Part shown: positions 2,164 to 56,026 of the stretch, piece after piece
Position numbering within the stretch: position 1 is the stretch's first letter
Layout of the letters: every line of letters starts with the position of its first letter
NCBI GenBank assembly: GCA_016196755.1
Contig: JACPXC010000062.1
Coordinates: 45,043-109,042, forward strand
DNA from: Elusimicrobiota bacterium
Lineage (GTDB): Bacteria; Elusimicrobiota; Elusimicrobia; UBA1565
Direction of reading: 5' to 3'
Length of the DNA: 64,000 nucleotides
Position numbers and translations under genes: made by a program
The notes under the pieces: model-generated
Told to the model about the DNA's origin: nothing
The model's input: the letters and a program-made list of their open reading frames with translations, nothing else
The model's database searches: none

Positions 2164-3197
2164 CGCGCACCTCCGCCGTTAGGCGCCGCCGCCGGCCCCG
2201 CCAGCGGCCCCACCTTCTGCCCGCCGAAGCGCAGGGTGAACGACACCCGGTGCGCGTTGCCGAGCTCGCCGTAGGGGAGCAAGGTGTAGTCCATGTTCCC
2301 GAACTTGGACCGGAACCCCATCCCCATGAACATCCCGTAGAACTCGGCCAGCCCGGGCGCCGTCGAGCCCAGAGCCTTCCCCAGCGCCGCCGTGCGCTGG
2401 GCCGAGGTCGTCGTGCGGTAGCCGGCGCGGAGGGCGAACGGGCCGAAGCCCAGATACTCGAAGCCGAGCCTAAACGCAGGGCTGTTGTCGCGCGGCAGGT
2501 CGAGCTGGAAGCTCAGCGCATGCGGGAACTTGGCCGTCATCCCGTAGGCGCCGCCCAGGCGCAGGGTCAACGGCAGGGGATAGCCCTGGTCGAGGAAGGT
2601 CACCTTGGTGCCGAGGTTGACGACCGAGGCGCCCAACGACAACGGCAGGACGCGCAGGCGGTAAAGCGCGCCCATGTCGGCCGCGTAGGCGGTGGCCGAG
2701 TACTCGCCGATGGTCTGGCGGATGAACTTGCCCGTGAAGCCCAGCCCCACGGCCGTGCCGGTCAGCCGCTTGCCGTAGCTGAAACCCAGCATGAGGTCGG
2801 AGGCGCCGAAGGTGCCCTCGGGCGCGGCGGTCTCCGTGGTGCGGCGCTCGATGCCGTCCAAGCCCAGGTGCGTGACGCTCATCCCCCACGGCCGGGCCAG
2901 GAAGCCGAACTGCGAGAGCCGGATGTCCTGGATGTGCATGGCATGCGAGGCCAGCATCTCGTAGCGGCGCGTCGTCTGGCGGGCGGCCTGGCCGGGGTCG
3001 AAGGCGAGCCCGGCGGGGTTGTAGTGCAGAGCCGAGACGTCGTCAGCCATCCCGACGAAGGCCTCGCCTATGCCCAGGGGACGGGCGCCGAAGCCGAGGT
3101 TGAGGAAGCTGGCGGCCGAGGTGCCGGGGCCGGCGGCGGAGATAGGCGAGGAGACCAGGACGAGGGCCGCCGTTATCAGGAGGGAAAGGCTTCGCAC
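2160..3197 (-). CDS. Outer-membrane beta-barrel transport protein, FadL/TodX/PorV-like
   Basis: ORF 2160..3848, trimmed to GTG at 3197 (MRSLSLLITAALVLVSSPISAAG signal peptide). N-terminal hatch motif ALHYNPAGLAF, alternating beta-strand pattern, C-terminal aromatic end. Its stop overlaps the TTG start of the downstream FG-GAP gene (TTGA). Confidence 0.6.
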   Translation of the reverse strand: MRSLSLLITAALVLVSSPISAAGPGTSAASFLNLGFGARPLGIGEAFVGMADDVSALHYNPAGLAFDPGQAARQTTRRYEMLASHAMHIQDIRLSQFGFLARPWGMSVTHLGLDGIERRTTETAAPEGTFGASDLMLGFSYGKRLTGTAVGLGFTGKFIRQTIGEYSATAYAADMGALYRLRVLPLSLGASVVNLGTKVTFLDQGYPLPLTLRLGGAYGMTAKFPHALSFQLDLPRDNSPAFRLGFEYLGFGPFALRAGYRTTTSAQRTAALGKALGSTAPGLAEFYGMFMGMGFRSKFGNMDYTLLPYGELGNAHRVSFTLRFGGQKVGPLAGPAAAPNGGGAR

Positions 3198-3293: not shown

Positions 3294-3896
3294 ATGCCCC
3301 GTCGGAGCTTCCCGGCCGCCCTTGCCGCCTGCGCCTTGGCCTGCTCGGTCCCGGCCCCCGTGGCGCCTCCCCCGTCGCCGGTCGCCAGCGCCGAGCTCCC
3401 CCGCGACCCCCAGGTCCTGCGCGCCGCTGTGCGCGACGCCTACGCCGCAGGCGACTTCACGCGCGGACTCGCGCTCGTCAAGCGCCTGCTCGAGGTCTCC
3501 ACCGACAAGGTCACCGCCTACGACGCCATCGGCTCGATCTACTTCTCCCTGGGCCGCGGGGCCGAGGCGATGGGGATGTGGGAGGCCGCCCTGCCGCTTG
3601 AGACCGACCCCAAGCGGCGCGCCGAGCTGGCCGCCTCGGTGTCCTTGGCGCGGCGCAGCCTCGGCCTGCCCGAGCCCAAGCCGGCGGCGGCCGCCAAGCC
3701 CCCCAAGAAGCCCGCCAAGACGCAGACCCCCGCCGACCCGCGCCGGGTCGAACTGCTCTACCAGGAGGGCCTGGTCAAGTACGCGAAGGGCGAGTACCTG
3801 GCCGCCACCACCCTGTTCATGCGCGCGCTGGAGCTCGACCCCAAGCATACCCCGTCGATCAAGGCCCTCGAGCGCCTCAAGCTCAACGCCCCATGA
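3294..3896 (+). CDS. TPR-like lipoprotein
   Basis: Signal peptide with lipobox LACS, TPR-like helical pairs, Lys/Pro-rich linker. Stop overlaps the next start (ATGA). Confidence 0.6.
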   Translation: MPRRSFPAALAACALACSVPAPVAPPPSPVASAELPRDPQVLRAAVRDAYAAGDFTRGLALVKRLLEVSTDKVTAYDAIGSIYFSLGRGAEAMGMWEAALPLETDPKRRAELAASVSLARRSLGLPEPKPAAAAKPPKKPAKTQTPADPRRVELLYQEGLVKYAKGEYLAATTLFMRALELDPKHTPSIKALERLKLNAP

Positions 3897-5206
3897 CCTT
3901 GCGCCTCAAACTGGGGTTGGCGCTGGCCTTGGTCGCGCTGGGCTCGACGGCCGCCGCCACGGCGCTCATGTTCCGCCTCCAGACCGAGGCCCTGCGCGCC
4001 TCCGAGGCCGAGACCCTGCGCCTGCTTTCGGACGGCGTGCGCCGCGTCGCCCAAGAATCCCTGCTCGCCCAGGACCCGCTCATGCTGCTCGACCATCTCG
4101 CCCACCTGCGCCGCGAGAGGCCCGAGGTCGCCGCCGCGCGGGCCATGGTCTCCGGTACCTGGCGCGAGGTCGGCGGCCCCGCCAAGGCCGACGCGGGGCC
4201 ACCCGTCGGAATAAAGGCGCAGGCCCCCGACGGCGCCGCGGCCGAGGCCGAGCTCTCCTTCTCGACGCGCCTCTTGGCCGAGCGCATGGCCGCGGCCCGC
4301 GCCGAGCTCGGGGCCCGCGCCCTGCGCGCCGGCGGCCTGGCCGCGGCGCTGGGGGTGGTCGTCGCGGCCCTGCTCAGCGCGCCGCTGACCGGGCGCATCC
4401 TCCGCATCGAGCGCGCCGTGGCCGAGATAGCGGAAGGCAAGCTAGGCGTCCAGGCCGAGGCGGCGGGCTCCGACGAGGTGGCCCGCCTGGCCCGCGGCGT
4501 CAACGCCATGTCGGCCCGGCTCAAGGAGCTCGACGAGCTCAAGCGCCTGTTCGTCGCCTCGGTCACCCACGAGCTGCGCTCGCCGCTGGGTGCTATCCAG
4601 GCCCAGGCCGCCGAGCTCATCGCCGCCGGCGGTCTGGCCGAGGGCCAGGCCGAGATGCTGGGACGGGTCCGGCGCAACGCGGCCCGGCTCGAGCACTTCG
4701 TGGCCTCGCTGCTCGAGGTGGCCAAGATCGAGCGCGGCCAGCTCGAGTACTCCCCCCGCCGGGCGGTCCTCGGCCCCATCGTCGAGGACGCCGCCCTGTT
4801 CTTCGCCGCCCGCGCGCGCGAGGCGGGCCTGAGCATGGAATCCCGCGTCGAGCCCGGCCTGCCCGAGCTCAACCTCGACCCCGACCTCATGACCCAGGCG
4901 GTGACGAACCTTATCTCCAACGCCATCAAGTACACCCCCAAGGGCGGCCGCGTCACGGTCTCGGCCGCCAAGGAAGGCAGAGCCGTCGAGGTGGCCGTCG
5001 CGGACACCGGCGTCGGCATCGCCCCCGAGGCTCTAGCCCGCCTCTTCACCCCCTTCGAGCGCGTCAAGAACCCCACCGGCGCCCCCGGCGTTGGCCTCGG
5101 ACTCGTCATCACCAAGTCCATCATCGAACGCCACGGCGGCACGCTCACCGTGACTTCCCAACCCGGCCAAGGCAGCCGGTTCTCCTTCCGCCTTCCTGTT
5201 GCGTAA
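3893..5206 (+). CDS. Sensor histidine kinase (2 TM, HAMP, HisKA, HATPase_c)
   Basis: H-box VTHELRSPLGAI, HAMP-like linker, G-boxes DTGVGI and GLGLVI, two hydrophobic segments. Confidence 0.85.
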   Translation: MTLRLKLGLALALVALGSTAAATALMFRLQTEALRASEAETLRLLSDGVRRVAQESLLAQDPLMLLDHLAHLRRERPEVAAARAMVSGTWREVGGPAKADAGPPVGIKAQAPDGAAAEAELSFSTRLLAERMAAARAELGARALRAGGLAAALGVVVAALLSAPLTGRILRIERAVAEIAEGKLGVQAEAAGSDEVARLARGVNAMSARLKELDELKRLFVASVTHELRSPLGAIQAQAAELIAAGGLAEGQAEMLGRVRRNAARLEHFVASLLEVAKIERGQLEYSPRRAVLGPIVEDAALFFAARAREAGLSMESRVEPGLPELNLDPDLMTQAVTNLISNAIKYTPKGGRVTVSAAKEGRAVEVAVADTGVGIAPEALARLFTPFERVKNPTGAPGVGLGLVITKSIIERHGGTLTVTSQPGQGSRFSFRLPVA

Positions 5207-5265
5207 GGGGTCAGACCTCGATGTTGCGTTTGTTGCGTTCGGGGTCAGACCTTCATGTTGCGTAA
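5191..5265. repeat. REP-like repeat cluster (tandem units built on a TGTTGCG heptamer and GGGGTCAGACC hairpin core)
   Basis: GGGGTCAGACCTCGATGTTGCG at 5207-5228 and GGGGTCAGACCTTCATGTTGCG at 5241-5262. TGTTGCG occurs at about 5196, 5222, 5231 and 5256. The histidine-kinase stop codon lies inside a partial unit (cttcctgttgcgTAAg). Confidence 0.6.
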
Positions 5266-5280
5266 GTGCCTTTTGTCGCC

Positions 5281-5309
5281 TTGACGAGCCAACGGCCGGG
5301 CCGTAAACT
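5281..5309 (+). promoter_or_regulatory. Sigma70-like promoter (TTGACG-17-TAAACT) for the response-regulator operon
   Basis: TTGACG at 5281-5286, TAAACT at 5304-5309 with 17-nt spacing, ATG at 5318. Confidence 0.4.
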
Positions 5310-5317
5310 ATCGCTCC

Positions 5318-5686
5318 ATGGCGGAAATACTCGTCGTCGATGATGAAGAGGATTACCGCCTCCTATTGCGGCACATCCTCGAGCGCGCTGGCCACAAGGT
5401 AAAGCTCGCCGACTGCGGCGAGGCAGGCCTAGCGGCCTACCACAAAGCGAAGCCTGACCTTCTCATACTAGACGCCAACATGCCGGACCTCGAGGGCTAC
5501 GAGGTCTGCAGGCAGCTCAGGTCCGCCGGGCACAAGACCCCGGTGATCTTCTGCACGGTCCGGTCCGCGGTATCGAAGGTAGCCGAAGGATTGCGCGCCG
5601 GAGGAGACGACTACGTCGTCAAGCCCTTCTCGCCGGAAGACCTCCTTGGGCGGGTGAAGGACGTCCTTTCTCGGCCCGGAAAATGA
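5318..5686 (+). CDS. Single-domain response regulator (CheY-like receiver)
   Basis: VVDDEED acidic pocket, phospho-acceptor Asp in LILDANMPDLEG, conserved Thr/Ser and Lys (VVKPF). Confidence 0.85.
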   Translation: MAEILVVDDEEDYRLLLRHILERAGHKVKLADCGEAGLAAYHKAKPDLLILDANMPDLEGYEVCRQLRSAGHKTPVIFCTVRSAVSKVAEGLRAGGDDYVVKPFSPEDLLGRVKDVLSRPGK

Positions 5687-6360
5687 GGAACCTGGACGTC
5701 GCCGTCGTGGACGGCGACGCCGGACGCCGAGAAGGATTGACGGCTATCCTCAAGTCGCGCGGTCACAAAGTAGCGAGCTACGCGACCGCTGGGCGATTCT
5801 TCGACGGTATGCTCGCGGAGCCGGCGCGGGCAGCATTCATTTCGATGGAACTGCCCGGCATGGATGGGAGGGAAGTCATCCGCGTACTGCGCGCGAACCC
5901 GGAATGCCGAGGCATGGTACTGATCGCGCTCTCGGCGGGCAGAAGGCGCCGCGAGGAGGTCCTCGCCGGGTTCGAAGCCGGGGCCGACGAGTTTCTCGAG
6001 GTCCCGTTCGACCCCGATTTCCTGACGGTACGATTGGAGTCGTTGCTCCGCGCCCGGCCGGCCGCCGCCGCGGCAAACATCTTCGACCTTGACGGCATCG
6101 CAATCGACTTAGATGCCCGTACCGTCACGGTCGCCGGAAAGCCGGTCAAGCTTACCCGCCTCGAATTCGACCTAGCCGCACATCTTGTCCGTCATAGAGG
6201 ACGCGTCCTCACGCGGGGAGCGCTTCTCGGCGCTGTATGGGGTACGAACGGTTCGAGCTCACGCACCGTCGACAAGCATGTCGAGGCGCTGCGCAGGAAG
6301 CTCCCTCCTTTGGCCAAGCGGCTCGACACCATCGTCAATGTCGGCTATCTGCTCCGCTAG
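5683..6360 (+). CDS. OmpR/PhoB-family winged-helix regulator with a degenerate (pseudo-)receiver domain
   Basis: C-terminal trans_reg_C motifs (LTRLEFDLAAHLVRHRGRVLTRGALLGAVWG...VDKHVEALRRKL). In the receiver, the phospho-acceptor position reads ISMELPGMDG (Asp to Ser) and the conserved Lys is Val (EVPFD). ATGA overlap with the upstream regulator. Confidence 0.75.
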   Translation: MRNLDVAVVDGDAGRREGLTAILKSRGHKVASYATAGRFFDGMLAEPARAAFISMELPGMDGREVIRVLRANPECRGMVLIALSAGRRRREEVLAGFEAGADEFLEVPFDPDFLTVRLESLLRARPAAAAANIFDLDGIAIDLDARTVTVAGKPVKLTRLEFDLAAHLVRHRGRVLTRGALLGAVWGTNGSSSRTVDKHVEALRRKLPPLAKRLDTIVNVGYLLR

Positions 6361-7154
6361 GTCGATTCCTGTTTTGCCCTTTTCTCCCTAGCGCGACTCG
6401 CGCAAGAACGGTCGCGCCTGAGGAATGAGGCCACATCGATCCCTTTCGCTCCCTGCCGCAGCGCTTCTTGGATGAAGCGCGCCCTTGCCTTGACGGCCGG
6501 GCCGGAACGATCGCGGCTCCGCAGTATGCCGGCCGGAAGGCCTTCCGCGCGTTCGACGCTGGCGATGATCGCCTCCAAATCGGCAGACGCCGACTGTGGC
6601 TCAGGAGCCCTTTCGGGTTCTTCCATGAACCGGTTGTAGGCCAGTACGGCCGCCGCTCTATCCAAGTCAAACAGCGAGAGTCCGAAGTCCATCTCAGCGA
6701 AGCCGTCCGGCACCCCTGTCGCATACGCGTTATGGCTAGACCACTTCCAATCTGAGGGCTTCTCGACTAAGCCGTGCCGGACGGGATTGCGGTGAATATA
6801 CCTCAAGACCTCCTGCACGTGAGCGTCTGAATGGCAGGGAAAGGCCTTGAACCGACCTTGAAAGACATGTCCAACGCGATCATGAGCCTTGTTGGATCTC
6901 ATCGCGAAAGAGGTCAGAGAGGCCTGTATCGCTCTCGAGATCGATTCCTCGAAGATACGGATTAAAAGGTGAAAATGATTCGGAATGAGGCAATAGGCGA
7001 GAAGGTCCGCGACAGGCAGCGACAATTCCTCCTTGAGCTTCTCCATGAACTTACCCCACTCGTCTTCGGCCTCGAACACCGTCTGCCTGCGATTGCCGCG
7101 GGAAATCACATGCATGACCGAACCGGGGACGAAGATCCTAGGAGGGCGTGCCAT
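6357..7154 (-). CDS. IS200-like Y1 HUH (RAYT-type) transposase with C-terminal DnaA-C-like HTH domain
   Basis: ORF 6357..7208, start taken at MARPPRIF. Motifs HVISRGNRRQTVF, LIPNHFHLLIR (HUH), HVFQGRFKA, RYIHRNPVRHG, followed by a DnaA C-terminal-like helix-turn-helix (ILRSRDRSGPAVKARARFIQEALRQ). Converges on the second response regulator with a 4-nt overlap. Confidence 0.8.
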   Translation of the reverse strand: MARPPRIFVPGSVMHVISRGNRRQTVFEAEDEWGKFMEKLKEELSLPVADLLAYCLIPNHFHLLIRIFEESISRAIQASLTSFAMRSNKAHDRVGHVFQGRFKAFPCHSDAHVQEVLRYIHRNPVRHGLVEKPSDWKWSSHNAYATGVPDGFAEMDFGLSLFDLDRAAAVLAYNRFMEEPERAPEPQSASADLEAIIASVERAEGLPAGILRSRDRSGPAVKARARFIQEALRQGAKGIDVASFLRRDRSCASRAREKRAKQEST

Positions 7155-7200
7155 AACATGTAATACGCTTATCCCCCCGATTTGGTTCCCTTTAAAGAAG

Positions 7201-7235
7201 CGCAACATCGAGGTCTGACCCCGAACGCAACAAGC
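7201..7235. repeat. REP-like repeat, inverted copy (22 nt identical to 5207-5228, 35 nt similar to 5229-5262)
   Basis: Reverse complement of 7201-7222 is GGGGTCAGACCTCGATGTTGCG; the flanking gcttgttgcgttc also matches. Lies in the 5' leader of the transposase, next to a TATAAT at 7236-7241. Confidence 0.6.
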
Positions 7236-7260
7236 TATAATGCCGCGTTGCGTCCCTCGC

Positions 7261-7350
7261 GGAGAGGTGCGTGAGTGGTTGAAACGAAACGACTGGAAAT
7301 CGTTTAGGGTGTAACAGCCCTCGGGGGTTCGAATCCCCCCCTCTCCGCCA
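7261..7350 (+). tRNA. tRNA-Ser (anticodon GGA), CCA encoded
   Basis: Hand-folded cloverleaf: acceptor GGAGAGG/CCTCTCC, anticodon loop CTGGAAA, long variable arm, T-arm GGGGGTTCGAATCCCCC, discriminator G plus CCA. Confidence 0.85.
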
Positions 7351-7381
7351 GTTCTTCATCATAGGATCCGGTGTTCCCATA

Positions 7382-7422
7382 GCCGAGCGGGTGCGTTTAG
7401 AGCGCGCCCGCTCGGCCTTTTT
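7382..7422 (+). terminator. Rho-independent terminator after tRNA-Ser
   Basis: Stem GCCGAGCGGG...CCCGCTCGGC followed by CTTTTT. Confidence 0.6.
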
Positions 7423-7487
7423 GGCGGGTACCGCAGGCGAGCGGAATATAAGGTATACTAATTATATTTAGTATTACTTTTTTATAT

Positions 7488-7516
7488 TTGACATACTTTA
7501 AGATATATGGTATACT
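7488..7516 (+). promoter_or_regulatory. Promoter (TTGACA-17-TATACT) with GTATAC palindromic operator-like repeats for the toxin-antitoxin operon
   Basis: Consensus -35 TTGACA at 7488-7493 and -10 TATACT at 7511-7516, inside a strongly AT-rich ~110-nt island. GTATAC repeated at about 7454 and 7510. RBS GGAGA lies 6 nt before ATG 7541. Confidence 0.5.
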
Positions 7517-7540
7517 TAGTTATAATCGTAGGAGATAAAA

Positions 7541-7771
7541 ATGGAAACCGGCGTCGTCACCATAAAGGGACAGGTTGTGATTCCGTCGAAAATCCGTCAT
7601 CGCCATCAGATCAAGAAAGGGACCAAGGTCTGCTTCATCGAACGCGGCGACGAGATCATCTTGAAGCCGGTCACCGACGAATACATCGACAAGCTGCGGG
7701 GGTCTCTGGGCACGAAAGGAGCCGTCCTCAGGTCCCTTATCGAGGAAAAGGGGCGCGAAAAGAAATTGTGA
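7541..7771 (+). CDS. AbrB/MazE/SpoVT-type antitoxin
   Basis: Swapped-hairpin motif TIKGQVVIPSKIRHRHQIKKG; 76 aa; stop overlaps the toxin start. Confidence 0.75.
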   Translation: METGVVTIKGQVVIPSKIRHRHQIKKGTKVCFIERGDEIILKPVTDEYIDKLRGSLGTKGAVLRSLIEEKGREKKL

Positions 7772-8175
7772 GCGGCAAGGTCTTGGACTCGTACGGAGTC
7801 ATCGCCTTCCTCGAGAATGAACCGGGAGCCGACAAGGTCGCTGAACTAATCAAGAGCGCCCGGGATAAGGACAGGCCCCTCCTCTTAAGCGTGGTGAACT
7901 GGGGAGAAGTCTATTACATCGTTCATCGCGCCGCGGGAAAAGAAGCCGCCGCCCGAACGATGCGGACGATCGACACGCTCCCGATCCAAGTCATTGAGGC
8001 GGATCGAACGCTCACGCAGATCGCCGCGGAGTTCAAATCCTCCGGAAAGATGTCCTACGCGGACTGTTTTGCGGCAGCTCTCGCCAAGGCTCGGAAGGCG
8101 GAACTCATAACCGGCGATCAGGAATTCAAGGCAGTAGAAGATGAGATCGAGATCCTCTGGCTTCCTAAAAAATGA
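7768..8175 (+). CDS. vapC: PIN-domain ribonuclease toxin (VapC-like)
   Basis: GTG at 7768 (GTGA overlap with the antitoxin stop). PIN acidic residues (LDSYGVIAF..E..., ...ITGDQEF). Confidence 0.7.
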   Translation: MSGKVLDSYGVIAFLENEPGADKVAELIKSARDKDRPLLLSVVNWGEVYYIVHRAAGKEAAARTMRTIDTLPIQVIEADRTLTQIAAEFKSSGKMSYADCFAAALAKARKAELITGDQEFKAVEDEIEILWLPKK

Positions 8176-51925: not shown

Positions 51926-52225
51926 TTATCTTGACCCCGTTCTTGATCCCGCGCACGCGACGGCCCGCTCGTAGCCGACGAGGCGGCGTAGGAGAGCGTT
52001 GTACCTGGAATGGGCGGCGTCGGAACCCTCGCGGCTCAATAAGGCGTAGAGCCGTTTTTCAGGATCCAGGAACGGCTCCGCCAAGGTGAGGCCGAGGCTG
52101 CGGAGCTTGGGAGCTCCAATTGAGACCAGGAGCGCCTCCGCCGTCTCGCGTCTCCCGGCCAGGTCGGCCGCGCCTTGGGCTACGAGGTCAGCCCCAGGCA
52201 GGCCGGGGTTGATGTCTGCAGCCAT
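51926..52225 (-). CDS. Hypothetical protein (99 aa) downstream partner of the COG1373 ATPase
   Basis: Ala/Leu-rich and helical; no motif recognised. 1-nt gap after the ATPase stop. Confidence 0.3.
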   Translation of the reverse strand: MAADINPGLPGADLVAQGAADLAGRRETAEALLVSIGAPKLRSLGLTLAEPFLDPEKRLYALLSREGSDAAHSRYNALLRRLVGYERAVACAGSRTGSR

Positions 52226-52226
52226 T

Positions 52227-53738
52227 TCACCTCAAGAGCATAAACGACGATAATGGAATCGTGACGATCCTCGGATCAATGACTTCAGACACTTCGGTTT
52301 GACAGATTAGCAGGCCGAAAGGCGCGTTGTTCACTTTCTTCTCGATAAATGCACGCAGCCCTTCAGTGTCCGCCAGCGGGTCGATTCTCCTCTGATACTT
52401 CACTTCCAAAGGGATTCTTCGCGTCCCGACGGTAAGAATAAAATCGACCTCGGGGTCATCCCCGCGAGCCGGAAGATGCGCCAGATCCAATGCCGGGATC
52501 GTGGCGAGCAACGCGCCGACGGCGCTCTCGGCGAGATGTCCGGCGAGAGTCGTCAAATGGGGATTCTTCTCAAGCTCCCGAGGATCCAAAGGAATGATTT
52601 CCTGCAGCCAACTCGCTCGCAAACCATGATCGGCAAGGCAGATTTTGGAATTGCCGCGGCGTTGCTTGAGTCTAATCTCAAGAGGCTCAACCAGCCTAAT
52701 CAAAAGCGTGTCAGACAAAAAACGCAGATATTGTCTTACGCGCTGCGACCCGATGTTGGCGTCGAGAGAGCGCTTTGTCTCTCTCGCAAAGAGCGCGTAG
52801 CCGGGAGTTTGTCCCACGTAACGGCAAGCCATCCGAAAAAGTTCTTCCAAAAGCGATTGGTCGCGCTTCCGTCCACGCTCACCGACCCGAAGATCATGTT
52901 CGATGACTCTTTTAATGACGGTCTCGTTCAAATGATCGGCGACTTGCGCCCAAGGCAACTCTCGACGTTCGTGTCCGAAGGGATATCCACCTCTCTCGGA
53001 AAATGCGCGAAAGGCGTTGTCTCGAAATTCACTGTTCTTGCGACCAGATTCGAGCAGAGAATGCCAAAATCCGTGCTCAACCAAGGGTTCCAATCCATTA
53101 TCTCTCAACCCCGGCTCAAGAGCACCCAATCCTTGGAACAATCCGATTTCCGTAAGCGACAGCACCCCGGCTTCGATCGTCGAGATTCGTCCAGCCAAAC
53201 TGTCACGACCCAAACCAATCCGCAAAGCAGAACTGCCCGTAACCAATATTTGAACGGCGGAATTATCAACCAGGTGCTTGAGCTGAGGCGCCCAGTCCTT
53301 TAGATTTTGGACCTCGTCCAAAAAAATGGTCGCCGGCCGTCCAACCTTTGCCGCTTCATTCAGCGACATGCCGAGAATCGATGTTTCGAACCAATCGACG
53401 ATACGCAGGATTGGCTCGGACAATTTTTCAATTTCCACCAGCTCATCAGTCTGAACTCGAAGAATTCGCCGAGGTTCCACTCCGGAAGAGAGCAAATCCT
53501 CAAGGACCTGCATCTGCGCGGTCGTCTTACCGATCTGTCGTGGACCGCGAACGACGACGATCGGCGCCACTTTTGCATTGAGTCGCTTTTGGATGGAACG
53601 AACCAGATGCCGCCTGGTCTCCGGCTGGGGTTTCGAAGGAAGGCCTTCCCACCAAGGGTTCATCCGCCGCAAATCCCGGACCAAAGGATCACTAAGCTTC
53701 ATAGCGGAAAAAAGGAAACTGGGGGAGGCTTCAGGCAA
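52227..53738 (-). CDS. AAA+ ATPase of the COG1373 family (AAA_14 + DUF4143)
   Basis: Walker A GPRQIGKTT, Walker B FLDEVQ, N-terminal MNPWWE motif, C-terminal DUF4143-like region. Confidence 0.7.
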   Translation of the reverse strand: MPEASPSFLFSAMKLSDPLVRDLRRMNPWWEGLPSKPQPETRRHLVRSIQKRLNAKVAPIVVVRGPRQIGKTTAQMQVLEDLLSSGVEPRRILRVQTDELVEIEKLSEPILRIVDWFETSILGMSLNEAAKVGRPATIFLDEVQNLKDWAPQLKHLVDNSAVQILVTGSSALRIGLGRDSLAGRISTIEAGVLSLTEIGLFQGLGALEPGLRDNGLEPLVEHGFWHSLLESGRKNSEFRDNAFRAFSERGGYPFGHERRELPWAQVADHLNETVIKRVIEHDLRVGERGRKRDQSLLEELFRMACRYVGQTPGYALFARETKRSLDANIGSQRVRQYLRFLSDTLLIRLVEPLEIRLKQRRGNSKICLADHGLRASWLQEIIPLDPRELEKNPHLTTLAGHLAESAVGALLATIPALDLAHLPARGDDPEVDFILTVGTRRIPLEVKYQRRIDPLADTEGLRAFIEKKVNNAPFGLLICQTEVSEVIDPRIVTIPLSSFMLLR

Positions 53739-54417
53739 GGCCGTTCTCCTTCTTGATGATGTCGACGAGCTCGATGATGTCGCCCAGCTCGTAGTCGGCG
53801 CCCGACTCCTTGGTGTCGAAGGTGTCGCCGTACTTGGCCCAGGCCGTCTTCAAGCCGATCTTCTTGGCCCCCACGATGTCGCGGTCGGGCCAGTCGCCGA
53901 CCATGAGGGTCTCCTCGGCCTTGGTGCCGAGGACCTCGAGGGCCTTCCGGAAGGGGATCTGGTCGGGCTTCTTGACCCCGTAGTCCTCGGAGGCGATGAC
54001 GTGGTCGAAGTAGTTGTGGATCCCTAAGCCCACGATGCGCAGCCAGACCTCGAGCTTCGGGGCATCGGAGAGGACGGTCGAGCGGATACCCATCTTGAGC
54101 AGCTCGAAGAGCGTCACCGTGACGTGGGGGTAGAGGGCCAGGGACCCCGCCTTCGAGCGCCGGTAGCCGACGATCCCGGCGGCCAGGATCTTGATGTCGA
54201 TGCGCCCGAACTCCTTCTGAAGGATCTTGTCGAAGATGCGCTGGTCCTCGACCCCCTCTTTCCAATAGAGCTCGAAGATCTTCTCGACGAAAGCGGTCTT
54301 GTCGACCTTGAGGCCGGCGTCGATCATCATCTCCACCGCCACGTCCACCGCCATGCGCTTGGTGCGCATGAAGTCGGTGAGCGTGTTGTCGATGTCGAAG
54401 ATGACCCCGCGGATCAA
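53731..54417 (-). CDS. HAD-superfamily hydrolase (subfamily IA)
   Basis: Motif I FDIDNTLTD, motif III K, motif IV GDWPDRD. TTG start overlapping the efp stop (TTGA). Confidence 0.75.
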   Translation of the reverse strand: MIRGVIFDIDNTLTDFMRTKRMAVDVAVEMMIDAGLKVDKTAFVEKIFELYWKEGVEDQRIFDKILQKEFGRIDIKILAAGIVGYRRSKAGSLALYPHVTVTLFELLKMGIRSTVLSDAPKLEVWLRIVGLGIHNYFDHVIASEDYGVKKPDQIPFRKALEVLGTKAEETLMVGDWPDRDIVGAKKIGLKTAWAKYGDTFDTKESGADYELGDIIELVDIIKKENGLA

Positions 54418-54977
54418 TCGACCACCCGGCCGACGTACTCTCCGGAGCGGGTGTCGACCTTGATCCGGTCGCCCTCTTTGATGAAGAGCGGGACCCGGAC
54501 GGTGATGCCGTTGGCGGTGACGGCGTTCTTGAGCAGGTTCGACACCGAGTCGCCCTTGAAACCCGGCTCGGCGCTGGAGATCTCCACGGTGATGTTCGGC
54601 GGGACCTCGACGGTGCGGAACACGCCGTCGAAGAACACCCCGATCACGTCCATGTTGTCGGTCATGAAGCGCGCCTGGTCGCCGATCTGCTCGCGCTTGA
54701 GGGTCGACTGCTCGTAGTTCTCCTGATCCATGAAGTGGAAGGTGTCGCCCTCGGAGTAGAGGAACTGGAAGTCGCGCTTGCGGACGTCGACCTCGCGGAA
54801 TTTCTCGGAGGAGTTGTAGGCCTCTTCGACGATCGAGCCGGAGTCCATGTCGCGCAGCTTGCACTGCACCTTGGCGCGCGCCTGGGACTTGCGGTGGTGC
54901 TGGTAGGTGATGACCTGATACTTGCGGCCGTTGGACTCGAAAATGAGGCCTTCCCTGAAGTCGTTGGGGGTGATCAT
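54414..54977 (-). CDS. efp: Translation elongation factor P
   Basis: Three-domain EF-P with KOW-like N-terminal domain and loop HHRKSQARAKV. RBS GGAGG precedes the ATG. Confidence 0.9.
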   Translation of the reverse strand: MITPNDFREGLIFESNGRKYQVITYQHHRKSQARAKVQCKLRDMDSGSIVEEAYNSSEKFREVDVRKRDFQFLYSEGDTFHFMDQENYEQSTLKREQIGDQARFMTDNMDVIGVFFDGVFRTVEVPPNITVEISSAEPGFKGDSVSNLLKNAVTANGITVRVPLFIKEGDRIKVDTRSGEYVGRVVD

Positions 54978-55005
54978 GTATTGCCTCCGAAAACTGTCCG
55001 TGGAT

Positions 55006-55013
55006 TGTAGAAT
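55006..55013 (+). promoter_or_regulatory. TG-TAGAAT -10 element, 8 nt upstream of ATG 55022 (leaderless-type)
   Basis: Same TAGAAT hexamer as at 3282, 14107 and 57155. Confidence 0.3.
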
Positions 55014-55021
55014 ATTCGACG

Positions 55022-56026
55022 ATGAGCGCGCCCCCCCTCTCCGCCGCCCGCCGAGTGGTCATCCTGTGGACCGGCCGCCTGGGCGACATCCTGGTCTCCA
55101 CCCCCTTCCTCGACGGCCTGCGCCGGGCCGTCCCCGGGGCCCGCATCGGCCTCATCACCGCGGAGGCCGGGGAGGGCGGCGCGCGCCTGCTCGACTGCGT
55201 CGACGAGGTGGGCGTCGTGCGCAAGGGCCGGCGCGTGCTGGCCAACGCGGCCCTCGTCCCGTTCCTGGGCCGGACCACCGACCTCCTCATCGACATGAAC
55301 TCGGCGCCGTCTGGGACCTCGACGGCCCTGGCCCGGCTCTCGCGCGCCAAGGCCAAGGCCGCCTTCGCCCGCGGACGCGGCGACGGAGCCTTCGACCTCT
55401 TGGCCGAAGCCCCCGGCGAGCGCGAGCACATGCTGGCGCGCTACGAGCGGCTCGCCGCCCTCTTGGGCTTCTCCTGCGCGCCGCGCATGCGGGTGCCGGT
55501 GCCCGAGGCCGACGCCGCCAAGGCCAAGCGCGCCCTGCGGGTCCTTCACGAAGGACGCCTGCCCGTGGCGCTCTTTGCGGGCAACTTCAAGAAGAAGGAG
55601 AACCGCTGGGCCGAGGACCGCTTCGCCGCCCTGGCCGACCGCCTGGCCGACCAGCGCGACCTCGCACCCTACTGGCTGGCCGGACCCGGCGAGCTCGAGC
55701 GCGTGGAGGCGGCCGCGGCGCTGGCGGCGGCGCGCCTGCCGGTCCTGGGCCCCTTCTCGCTTGGGGTGACGGCGGGCATCCTCGGACAGTCGGCGCTCTA
55801 CGTCGGCAACTGTACGGGGACCTCGCACCTGGCGGTCTGCGCCGGCACGCCCACCTTCACGGTCCTGGCCGGCTACACCGCCGCGGTATGGGCGCCCCCC
55901 GCCGCGCCGCCGCATTGGCGGGCCGTGTCGGCGGACTGGGAGTCCTGCCGCGAGGTCGGCGTCGAGGAGGCCTGGAAGGCCCTTCAGCCGGCGTTGGCTT
56001 TCTGCCGCTCGGCCAAGCGCGCGTAG
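55022..56026 (+). CDS. Glycosyltransferase family 9 (heptosyltransferase-like)
   Basis: RVVILWTGRLGDILVSTPFL...VGNCTGTSHLA are GT9 signatures. Confidence 0.75.
   Translation: MSAPPLSAARRVVILWTGRLGDILVSTPFLDGLRRAVPGARIGLITAEAGEGGARLLDCVDEVGVVRKGRRVLANAALVPFLGRTTDLLIDMNSAPSGTSTALARLSRAKAKAAFARGRGDGAFDLLAEAPGEREHMLARYERLAALLGFSCAPRMRVPVPEADAAKAKRALRVLHEGRLPVALFAGNFKKKENRWAEDRFAALADRLADQRDLAPYWLAGPGELERVEAAAALAAARLPVLGPFSLGVTAGILGQSALYVGNCTGTSHLAVCAGTPTFTVLAGYTAAVWAPPAAPPHWRAVSADWESCREVGVEEAWKALQPALAFCRSAKRA

Follow-up and report, generated by a model that had tools for sequence, protein, structure and literature searches.

A 64,000-nucleotide stretch from the genome of an Elusimicrobiota bacterium (assembly GCA_016196755.1, contig JACPXC010000062.1, positions 45,043 to 109,042 of the forward strand; in the following called the window, with positions counted from its first nucleotide) contains a 2-kb block in which two response regulator genes (RR1 and RR2) and a gene for a Y1/HUH tyrosine transposase-like protein are enclosed by inverted repeats. 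The block lies between a histidine kinase gene (HK) and a tRNA-Ser gene. Judged by their sequence and position, the repeats are terminal inverted repeats (TIRs) of a TIRYT gene, which together with them forms a TIRtron, and not repetitive extragenic palindromes (REPs). The two regulators are residents of the locus. We regard it as likely that they became bracketed when the block of regulators and TIRYT was inverted and TIR copies were relocated or duplicated, and not because they are carried as cargo.

The bracketing repeats are TIRs of a TIRYT gene

A sequence-only reading of the window had reported an identical 22-mer at both ends of the block, embedded in a longer similarity, and both observations were confirmed. 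The 22-mer GGGGTCAGACCTCGATGTTGCG occurs exactly at 5207-5228 (+) and 7201-7222 (-), with a third copy containing two mismatches at 5241-5262 (+), and had no match in shuffled versions of the window. The longer similarity comprises 33 nt in the inverted pair 5230-5262/7201-7233 (94% complementary) and 38 nt in the pair 5197-5234/7195-7232 (89% complementary). The repeats consist of units of 33-34 nt with the architecture TGTTGCG-N3-GGGGTCAGACC-N4-TGTTGCG, two of which form a tandem doublet with a period of 34 nt on the left side. All three units match the pattern TGTTGCGNNNGGGGTCAGACC exactly, and no further copy was found in the 64 kb at up to three mismatches. As the earlier reading had also noticed, the left array contains the TGTTGCG heptamer and supplies the stop codon of HK. 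Its statement that only two response regulator genes and a HUH/Y1 transposase gene lie between the inverted copies agrees with the open reading frames and their Pfam assignments. The repeat units and the TIRYT gene are located as follows.

5197..5229, + strand: TIR unit A1, consisting of TGTTGCG (5197-5203), the HK stop codon TAA (5204-5206), the core GGGGTCAGACC (5207-5217), TCGA and TGTTGCG (5222-5228); directed rightwards, i.e. inwards
5230..5263, + strand: TIR unit A2, the second tandem copy, TTGTTGCG-TTC-GGGGTCAGACC-TTCA-TGTTGCG; best inverted partner of A' (33 nt, 94%)
6357..7154, - strand: TIRYT gene, Y1/HUH tyrosine transposase-like, 265 amino acids, with a catalytic TnpA_REP-like domain at about residues 5-147 and a helical C-terminal domain at residues 190-264
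7155..7200, - strand: 5' leader of TIRYT with the conserved motif GGGAACCAAAYCGGGGGG...GCGTATT
7201..7233, - strand: TIR unit A', the 5' TIR of TIRYT at its canonical place, directed leftwards, i.e. inwards, and abutting the -10 box of tRNA-Ser

For comparison, 80 metagenome loci encoding TIRYT homologues were fetched, 65 of which had enough flanking sequence for core counts. Nearly every homologous gene is closely bracketed by inverted repeats starting with (T)GGGGTCAG(G/A)C. An inward-facing core GGG[GT][AT][CG]A was found within 160 nt upstream of the gene in 52 of the 65 loci (80%) and downstream in 42, compared to a background of 7% per 160-nt interval. The core GGGGTCAG is present in all three copies of the window. 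Core and ATG are usually 46-60 nt apart (median 58 nt, mode 46-47 nt); the core of A' begins 68 nt ahead of the ATG. The downstream core usually overlaps the stop codon, its outer edge being located most often 4 nt past it. At the stop codon of the window gene, this canonical 3' TIR is missing.

RAYT-like genes (REP-associated tyrosine transposases) bracketed by TIRs that share the sequence GGGGWSAS have been described under the names TIRYT and TIRtron (Di Nocera, De Gregorio & Rocco 2013, BMC Genomics 14:522; PMC3733652). TIRYTs were later classified as subclass 2.1 of TnpA_REP, which possesses C-terminal Bac_DnaA_C or helix-turn-helix (HTH) domains; the criterion for subclass 2.1.2 is a C-terminal HTH domain of the type Bac_DnaA_C, HTH_23 or HTH_28 (Quentin, Siguier, Chandler & Fichant 2018, BMC Genomics 19:475; PMC6006769). 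In the literature searched, the term TIRYT appears only in these two papers, neither of which gives an activity or a biological role, and a search with the core sequence returned unrelated eukaryotic papers only.

The family-wide occurrence of TIRs thus bears out the assignment of the repeats to the HUH/Y1 gene, which the sequence-only reading had made, as well as its remark that the bracketed layout is unusual for such genes. Its identification of the repeats as REPs has to be replaced, as they are GGGGWSAS-type TIRs. A model in which the units form REP-type hairpins was rejected: the z-scores of DNA folding are +0.66 and +1.13 for the left units and -1.9 (-6.7 kcal/mol) for the right unit, i.e. 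the units fold no better than shuffled sequences. Within the window, there is no sign of a dispersed repeat family beyond the three local copies. A scan of a genome-contig collection, which does not include the source genome, with TGTTGCGNNNGGGGTCAGACC yielded 13 isolated matches in unrelated taxa, where a rough estimate predicts about 17 by chance, and no TIRYT gene was found near them within the 8 kb fetched.

Across the family, the TIR has two parts. The conserved 8-nt core GGGGTCAG is followed by a pair of direct 5-8-mers in tandem (period 7-9 nt), whose sequence is specific for the element. Examples are TTGAAT, TTAACTTT, CTGATTT and TAGCAT in the upstream TIRs of the loci L016-L095 (e.g. 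L060, L066, L056, L085 and L091) and TGTTGCG in the window (5222-5237). An exact repeat of at least 6 nt is contained in 25% of 53 TIRs, compared to 3.6% of shuffled sequences. The variable 5-8-mers are candidate binding sites of the C-terminal HTH domain.

TIRs are not confined to the two ends of a TIRYT gene. Tandem copies were found in L041, L057, L069 and L075, and inverted pairs away from the gene in L045, L046, L056 and L057. The presence of tandem and solo copies beside other TIRYT genes indicates that changes at the level of the TIR unit are common, and the copies far from the gene indicate that TIRs spread as separate units in some genomes. The additional TIRs are located at 143/218 and 2111/2499 in L056, at 7707/7745 in L057, at 994/1052 and 4036/4093 in L046 and at 26/219 in L045; they often form inverted pairs with a distance of 40-390 nt, an arrangement reminiscent of REPINs. 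A displaced downstream TIR was seen in only one of the 80 loci, L069. Here, the TIRYT gene (5001-5858) is followed by an open reading frame of 308 amino acids (5916-6842) and by an inverted TIR at 6991. The same locus contains tandem copies of the upstream TIR at 4905 and 4955.

The TIRYT protein combines a TnpA_REP-like catalytic domain with a C-terminal helical domain

The TIRYT gene is annotated in NCBI as MBI3300228.1 of an Elusimicrobia metagenome-assembled genome (MAG). It converges with RR2 in a 4-nt overlap at 6357-6360, in which the two stop codons overlap by 2 nt. The encoded protein matches the Pfam family Y1_Tnp with 38 bits (cut-off 23) and the NCBIfam model REP_Tyr_transpos with 75.3 bits, which is under the equivalog cut-off of 80. 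The classical RAYT proposed in the earlier reading is consequently better described as a member of the TIRYT class. The HUH and Tyr motifs that had been recognized in the sequence are real: residues N59, H60, H62 and Y119 are invariant in an alignment of the protein with 19 homologues (20 sequences), and both the HUH motif and the catalytic Tyr are kept. The only sequence match in the PDB is 4ER8, the TnpA_REP protein of E. coli. This structure is also the best fold match (TM score 0.70) of an AlphaFold2 model with a pLDDT of 89.6, which contains four confident helices at residues 190-264.

Of the two hidden Markov model (HMM) searches that had been proposed, the one with Y1_Tnp was positive, and the one with Bac_DnaA_C gave no match to the C-terminus of the window protein even at E <= 10. 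The C-termini of the TIRYTs from the related loci L111, L110 and L109 produced sub-threshold matches to HTH_23, Bac_DnaA_C and HTH_38 (E values of 3e-4 to 5e-3), and PF08299 is present in many TIRYT homologues. We classify the window protein from its sequence and modelled fold as a TIRYT, a class of single-copy RAYT-like HUH/Y1 transposases, whose C-terminal helical domain is predicted to bind DNA.

The best matches of the window TIRYT are the proteins from L109, L110 and L111 (42-49% identity), and the four are mutually best matches. Their leaders can be aligned as well. The four proteins are taken as orthologues, which appear to evolve faster than RR1+RR2 (67-83% identical). An exact-protein look-up of TIRYT with two start choices gave no match.

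The response regulator genes are residents of a conserved locus

The genes flanking TIRYT and the signals associated with them are listed below.

3893..5206, + strand: HK (HAMP-HisKA-HATPase_c, Pfam); left flank, resident; its final codons and stop lie in A1
5281..5309, + strand: sigma-70-like promoter of RR1-RR2, TTGACG-17-TAAACT; inside the block and the only promoter-like site in 5100-7450
5318..5686, + strand: RR1, a stand-alone receiver response regulator (Pfam Response_reg, 107.7 bits)
5683..6360, + strand: RR2, an OmpR-type response regulator with a degenerate receiver (Pfam Trans_reg_C and Response_reg)
7261..7350, + strand: tRNA-Ser(GGA) (ARAGORN; Rfam tRNA, 56.7 bits); right flank, resident

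Orthologous loci were located by means of contigs that carry RR2 orthologues. The set TPR-HK-RR1-RR2-tRNA-Ser, which includes a TPR gene next to HK, was found in six related loci of Elusimicrobia; TIRYT is present in three of them and absent from the other three.

L105: TPR>HK>RR1>RR2>tRNA-Ser>; TIRYT absent
L106 and L108: <tRNA-Ser RR1>RR2> <HK<TPR; TIRYT absent
L110 and L111: <tRNA-Ser RR1>RR2> <TIRYT <HK; TIRYT present
L109: like L110 and L111 up to the end of the contig; TIRYT present

Orthologues of RR1 are 75-81% identical in all six loci, those of RR2 are 63-76% identical, and those of HK are 66-73% identical in L105, L106, L108 and L110. The same tRNA-Ser adjoins the regulator pair in L105, L106, L108, L109, L110 and L111, and the backbone persists beyond it: a 475-aa neighbour in the relatives corresponds to the 491-aa gene of the window (64% identity). 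Boxes of the form TTGACG...TACACT precede RR1 in L111 and L105. As RR1-RR2 occupy the same site between HK and tRNA-Ser with or without TIRYT, the regulators are residents and not cargo. The comparison of relatives suggested in the earlier reading thus had two outcomes: the regulator pair is kept at the kinase/tRNA-Ser site, and the combination of two regulators and transposase is not present or absent as a unit, since only TIRYT varies. The window TIRYT in turn can be regarded as an old resident of one chromosomal site in an Elusimicrobia clade.

This synteny decides against the view that A2...A' (5230-7233) is a composite mobile unit, which would move TIRYT together with two passenger regulators and would have been inserted by the resident A1. 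Several features of the window fit such a unit. A2 and A' are the best inverted pair and have 11 nt in common outside the core, whereas the outer flank of A1 differs; the tandem arrangement A1-A2 resembles an insertion next to a resident TIR; RR1, RR2 and TIRYT are atypical in composition, with the left edge of the shift at the TIR doublet; the independent Logan contig L001 breaks in both TIRs; and in L069 a 308-aa open reading frame is located between TIRYT and its displaced TIR. However, six relatives, among them three without TIRYT, have RR1-RR2 at the same HK/tRNA-Ser site, and an insertion would demand that a resident regulator pair disappeared simultaneously. No regulator genes of this type were found at the 80 other TIRYT loci or beside the closest homologues outside the locus, and there was no second copy of the unit: an exact look-up of the RR2 protein returned two short Logan contigs, both from the same locus. 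Moreover, the low-GC stretch extends beyond A' to about 8140. We hold a composite unit, and with it the cargo interpretation of the sequence-only reading, to be improbable.

The repeats of the relatives correspond to those of the window. In L109, L110 and L111, a compact TIRtron lies between the stop codons of HK and RR2, its TIRs tight against TIRYT. In L111, the TIR following the HK stop is cGTTGCG-TCA-GGGGTCAGGCC-CCCA-TGTTGCA, and the one that fills the gap between the stops of RR2 and TIRYT is TGTTGCA-TTA-GGGGTCAGGCC-CCGA-TGTTGCA. The architecture heptamer-N3-core-N4-heptamer is common to these TIRs and the window units. A1 is homologous to the TIR right after the HK stop in L111 and in L110, and it is probably the ancestral HK-adjacent TIR left in place.

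These comparisons also bear on the alternative offered by the earlier reading, according to which the TGTTGCG repeats are operator sites bound by the pseudo-receiver regulator RR2. Direct heptamers do lie upstream of the RR1-RR2 promoter. Their start-to-start distances are nevertheless 25, 9 and 25 nt and not the 11 bp that had been stated or the approximately 10-11 expected of such sites, and TIRYT genes in general are flanked by this unit, with its register relative to the GGGGTCAG core unchanged. Across the relatives, the heptamers follow the TIRYT repeats and not the regulator: in L111 they read TGTTGCA and flank TIRYT instead of RR1, and in L109 and L110 other repeats take their place, with RR2 still conserved. 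Upstream of RR1, TGTTGCG heptamers are absent from L105, L106, L108, L110 and L111. An operator role is thus extremely improbable.

Two of the TIRYT-free loci retain traces of the element. In L106, one core GGGCCAGACACCC is left between the convergent stops of HK and RR2 (6679-6691). Together with the adjoining end of HK it matches the HK end plus TIR core of its sister L110 in 27 of 30 positions, which indicates that loss of the gene leaves a clean site with a single core. The L106 core and the last codons of HK and RR2 form the palindrome CCTGTTGCGTTAAGGGTGTCTGGCCCTTAAGTCAACGG (compared with L110 4326-4345 and 5160-5197). In L105, weak TIR remnants are located at the ends of HK and RR2 in direct orientation; the distance of the RR2-side remnant to the -10 box of the tRNA gene is about the same as for the right TIR of the window.

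The block between kinase and tRNA-Ser has been inverted

Written in the orientation of the kinase, the layout is HK> A TIRYT> A' <RR2 <RR1 tRNA> in L110 and L111, and HK> A1 A2 RR1> RR2> <TIRYT A' tRNA> in the window. This comparison shows that TIRYT, RR2 and RR1 were inverted as one block between the same flanks, with TIR copies at both breakpoints. In a neighbour-joining tree of RR1+RR2, L106 groups with L110 and L105 with L109 (100% bootstrap each), and the window groups with L105 in 0.7%. These groupings imply that the orientation of the block changed at least twice and that TIRYT was lost at least twice. The alignment and tree of the loci thus show a conserved locus with at least two independent changes of orientation and repeated loss of TIRYT. 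They also show that TIR copies arise, disappear and are doubled independently of TIRYT.

The outer neighbour of the ancestral TIR, the HK stop, is now found at A1, and its inner neighbour, the conserved leader, at A'. As both neighbours were kept, the TIR was duplicated in the event. The following history is likely. The ancestral layout would have been TPR>HK>[TIR TIRYT> TIR]<RR2<RR1 tRNA-Ser>, with the TIRtron between the convergent stops of kinase and RR2. In the lineage of the window genome, the block TIRYT+RR2+RR1 was turned round between kinase and tRNA-Ser. One TIR presumably stayed at the kinase stop (A1, with A2 in tandem), another one stayed with the TIRYT leader (A', now beside the tRNA promoter), and the TIR between the stops of RR2 and TIRYT is gone.

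With respect to the mechanism, the HUH domain of TIRYT may recognize the conserved core and nick single-stranded DNA at or near it, while the C-terminal helical domain may bind the element-specific tandem 5-8-mers. TIR units would occasionally be copied or moved to nearby sites, with tandem and solo copies as the result. The spacer between RR1 and tRNA may have received an inverted TIR copy in this way, which then led to the inversion, either by a duplicative route (intramolecular replicative transposition or staggered nicks) or by later recombination between the copies. Y1 HUH enzymes are not known to perform duplicative inversions. A one-step history was rejected, as none of six single-inversion scenarios (canonical TIRtron at either junction and in either orientation) gives the window layout.

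In the window orientation, RR1-RR2 are located downstream of the kinase on the same strand. The regulatory consequence of the inversion is probably small, because the predicted RR1 promoter (5281-5309) moves with the block. This point also speaks against a reversible switch, in which the TIR-bracketed block would flip within populations, driven by TIRYT or by recombination between the 33-nt repeats, and would place RR1-RR2 alternately in line with or against the kinase operon. A switch would agree with the location of inverted repeats exactly at the borders of a block seen in both orientations, with at least two independent changes, and with the assembly of an independent sample that breaks at both repeats although the exact sharing of 22-23 nt is below k=31. 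On the other hand, L110, L111 and L109, which represent the other orientation, have no TIR in the spacer between RR1 and tRNA, so that the same route is impossible there; the remnants in L105 are in direct orientation; and no serine or tyrosine recombinase was found near the block, a Y1 HUH protein being the only enzyme of this kind present. A switch therefore has little probability in our judgement.

Base composition and observations that weigh against the inversion history

The GC content at third codon positions (GC3) is 76 for RR1, 75 for RR2 and 68 for TIRYT, compared to 93 for HK, 95 for the TPR gene and 94 for the 491-aa gene; the median of 46 open reading frames of the window is 87. 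The GC3 of the MazE gene, which follows tRNA-Ser, is also within the range of 68-76. In all six relatives, the GC3 of the regulator genes equals that of HK. The low-GC stretch passes A' and continues through tRNA-Ser and a toxin-antitoxin pair to about 8140, and 1-kb segments with 60-65% GC are common elsewhere in the window. GC content was for this reason rejected as proof of an import bounded by the TIRs, since the low-GC stretch overruns the right TIR; the GC3 anomaly itself is real.

Several observations weigh against the inversion as the explanation of the bracket. As no single inversion of the canonical layout suffices, an extra step is needed, namely the loss of the internal TIR and the gain of A2. 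The junctions HK-A1-A2-RR1 and TIRYT-A'-tRNA are represented by one MAG contig, and independent Logan contigs span the interior of the block only and end inside the TIRs. For example, the ends of contig L001 (SRR12113416; 2,004 nt) at 1-30 and 1975-2004 correspond to window positions 5234 and 7237, i.e. to positions inside both TIRs. Exact identity among the three TIR copies is limited to 22-23 nt, less than k=31, so that they cannot alone have caused these breaks, which could be due to other copies, strain variants or both orientations in the sample. The similarity of the L105 remnants to the TIRs of L109 is marginal (p of approximately 0.04 and 0.10) and suggestive only. A biochemical activity has not been reported for any TIRYT in the literature searched. 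Finally, the low GC3 of the regulator genes is confined to the window genome, which suggests that the block or the whole segment from 5.2 to 8.1 kb was imported from a relative with lower GC content. An inversion in situ leaves this anomaly unexplained, and a weak form of the notion that the block travelled as a unit is possible.

If import is taken as the explanation, the entire segment that begins at the kinase stop and ends where the 491-aa gene starts (RR1, RR2, TIRYT, tRNA-Ser and MazE/PIN) would have been replaced by homologous recombination with a lower-GC relative, and the bracket would be older and would have arisen in the donor lineage. The GC3 values, 93-95 in HK, TPR and the 491-aa gene versus 68-76 in RR1, RR2, TIRYT and MazE, are in line with this proposal, as is the match between regulators and kinase in the relatives. 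However, no donor-like relative with low GC is found among the seven loci, the identity patterns of the regulators and HK are not clearly incongruent, and TIRYT and toxin-antitoxin genes have a lower GC3 in all genomes anyway. An import would account for the origin of the DNA and not for the bracket, and would thus complement the inversion history. We consider it very improbable as an explanation in its own right.

A further possibility is that TIRYT is not a relic and still acts on its TIRs, such that the 2-kb segment RR1-RR2-TIRYT is a TIRYT-dependent cassette, which as a whole can be turned round or swapped between related genomes. Such a cassette would explain why the orientation changed repeatedly at the same breakpoints, why the TIR is duplicated, why the GC3 of the block in the window genome looks foreign and why the assembly breaks at both TIRs. 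We deem it unlikely. If true, it would provide the first in-genome evidence for the function of a TIRYT and the first example of a HUH/Y1 enzyme that drives the inversion or cassette exchange of neighbouring host genes.

Comparison with known systems

The element has most features of a TIRtron. It encodes a RAYT-like Y1/HUH protein that is longer than RAYTs and has a C-terminal helical extension, putatively of the HTH type; it possesses long TIRs with GGGGWSAS (here GGGGTCAG), with normal spacing between the 5' TIR and the ATG; and it has tandem TIR copies and an apparently low copy number. It differs in that the 3' TIR is doubled and located 1.1 kb from the stop codon, beyond two resident regulator genes, and in its fixation at a single orthologous site throughout a clade. 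Moreover, this site occurs in inverted, occupied and TIRYT-free single-core alleles. None of these differences has been described in PMC3733652 or PMC6006769. The element is hence of a known but barely studied kind, in an undescribed arrangement with an informative set of alleles at one locus.

With RAYT-REP/REPIN systems (E. coli TnpA_REP, 4ER8; Nunvar 2010; Bertels & Rainey 2011; Bertels 2017), the element shares the closest catalytic domain in both sequence and fold, apparently a single gene copy with vertical inheritance at one locus, and cognate repeats in inverted orientation. In contrast to REPs, the window repeats are not hairpin palindromes, contain neither a GTAG nor a CGTC tag and are not abundant locally, and their protein narrowly misses the REP_Tyr_transpos cut-off and possesses an additional domain at its C-terminus. 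TnpA proteins of the IS200/IS605 family (IS608, ISDra2) have the HUH/Y1 fold and the catalytic residues in common with TIRYT, and the precise presence and absence alleles of the locus recall their seamless single-strand excision; yet those elements have subterminal hairpins, no TIRs and multiple identical copies, whereas no such copies or hairpins were seen at the window locus. The inverted segment itself resembles the products of intramolecular replicative transposition by IS26, Tn3 or Mu, or of inversions initiated by staggered breaks: an ancestral repeat is now present in inverted orientation at both borders, one of which still has the outer neighbour of the repeat and the other the inner one. 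Here, only a 33-nt TIR unit and no complete transposon has been duplicated.

The alleles of this one site form a natural series, which comprises the TIRtron in compact form, a site without TIRYT that has one core, an inverted block with TIRs at both breakpoints and an inverted site with TIR remnants only. From this series it is predicted that the enzyme cuts at the GGGGTCAG core and that its C-terminal domain binds the variable tandem 5-8-mers. It further predicts that TIR units are copied on their own and are able to reorganize neighbouring host genes, in this case a two-component system. For annotation, it follows that inverted transposase repeats around host genes do not necessarily mark cargo.

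Further observations on the locus and its surroundings

Read against RR1, the receiver of RR2 has Ser in place of the phospho-acceptor Asp (FISMELPGMDG) and Val in place of the conserved Lys. The Ser is kept in the orthologues compared (L105, L106 and L108; F[IV]S[MT][ET]L), and the Val was seen in the window copy. RR2 is a conserved pseudo-receiver regulator of the OmpR family and is always translationally coupled to RR1 by an ATGA start-stop overlap. The TATAAT box of tRNA-Ser is located at 7235-7240, 2 nt from the TIR. In an Rfam scan, the tRNA was the only feature over the family threshold; other matches were far under threshold and lay on or beside the tRNA.

Toxin-antitoxin modules occupy varying slots of the locus in different genomes. 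In the window, a MazE/PIN pair follows an AT-rich spacer at 7420-8175, between tRNA-Ser and the 491-aa gene; L108 has a MazE/PIN pair (3521-4209) and L105 a ParE-type pair (2624-3095) upstream of the TPR gene. The 570-nt spacer between HK and RR1 in L105 contains, at 5150-5530, inverted repeats of about 42 nt (CTCCGCTCCCCCGAACCC(T/G)TGAACC...GGTTCCCCCGC) that are about 280 nt apart. This insert is structured or resembles a miniature inverted-repeat transposable element, and it is absent from the window. A second low-GC stretch of the window (52000-54000; 56%), with open reading frames at 52476-53303 (GC3 62) and 53731-55431 (GC3 75), is possibly another acquired segment.

Among the matches in the genome-contig collection, MAGs of Ilumatobacteraceae contain a recurrent, near-identical motif TGTTGCGCC[AC]GGGGTCAGACCCC at L008 1764-1784, L010 3284-3304, L014 5803-5823 and L015 5381-5401. 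The motif extends into an imperfect palindrome in three of these four loci, e.g. TGTTGCGCCAGGGGTCAGACCCCCGGCGTAACA, which may form a hairpin. Another of the matches, from Parapusillimonas (L004, 750-880), lies in a cluster of GGGGTCTGACCCC palindromes.

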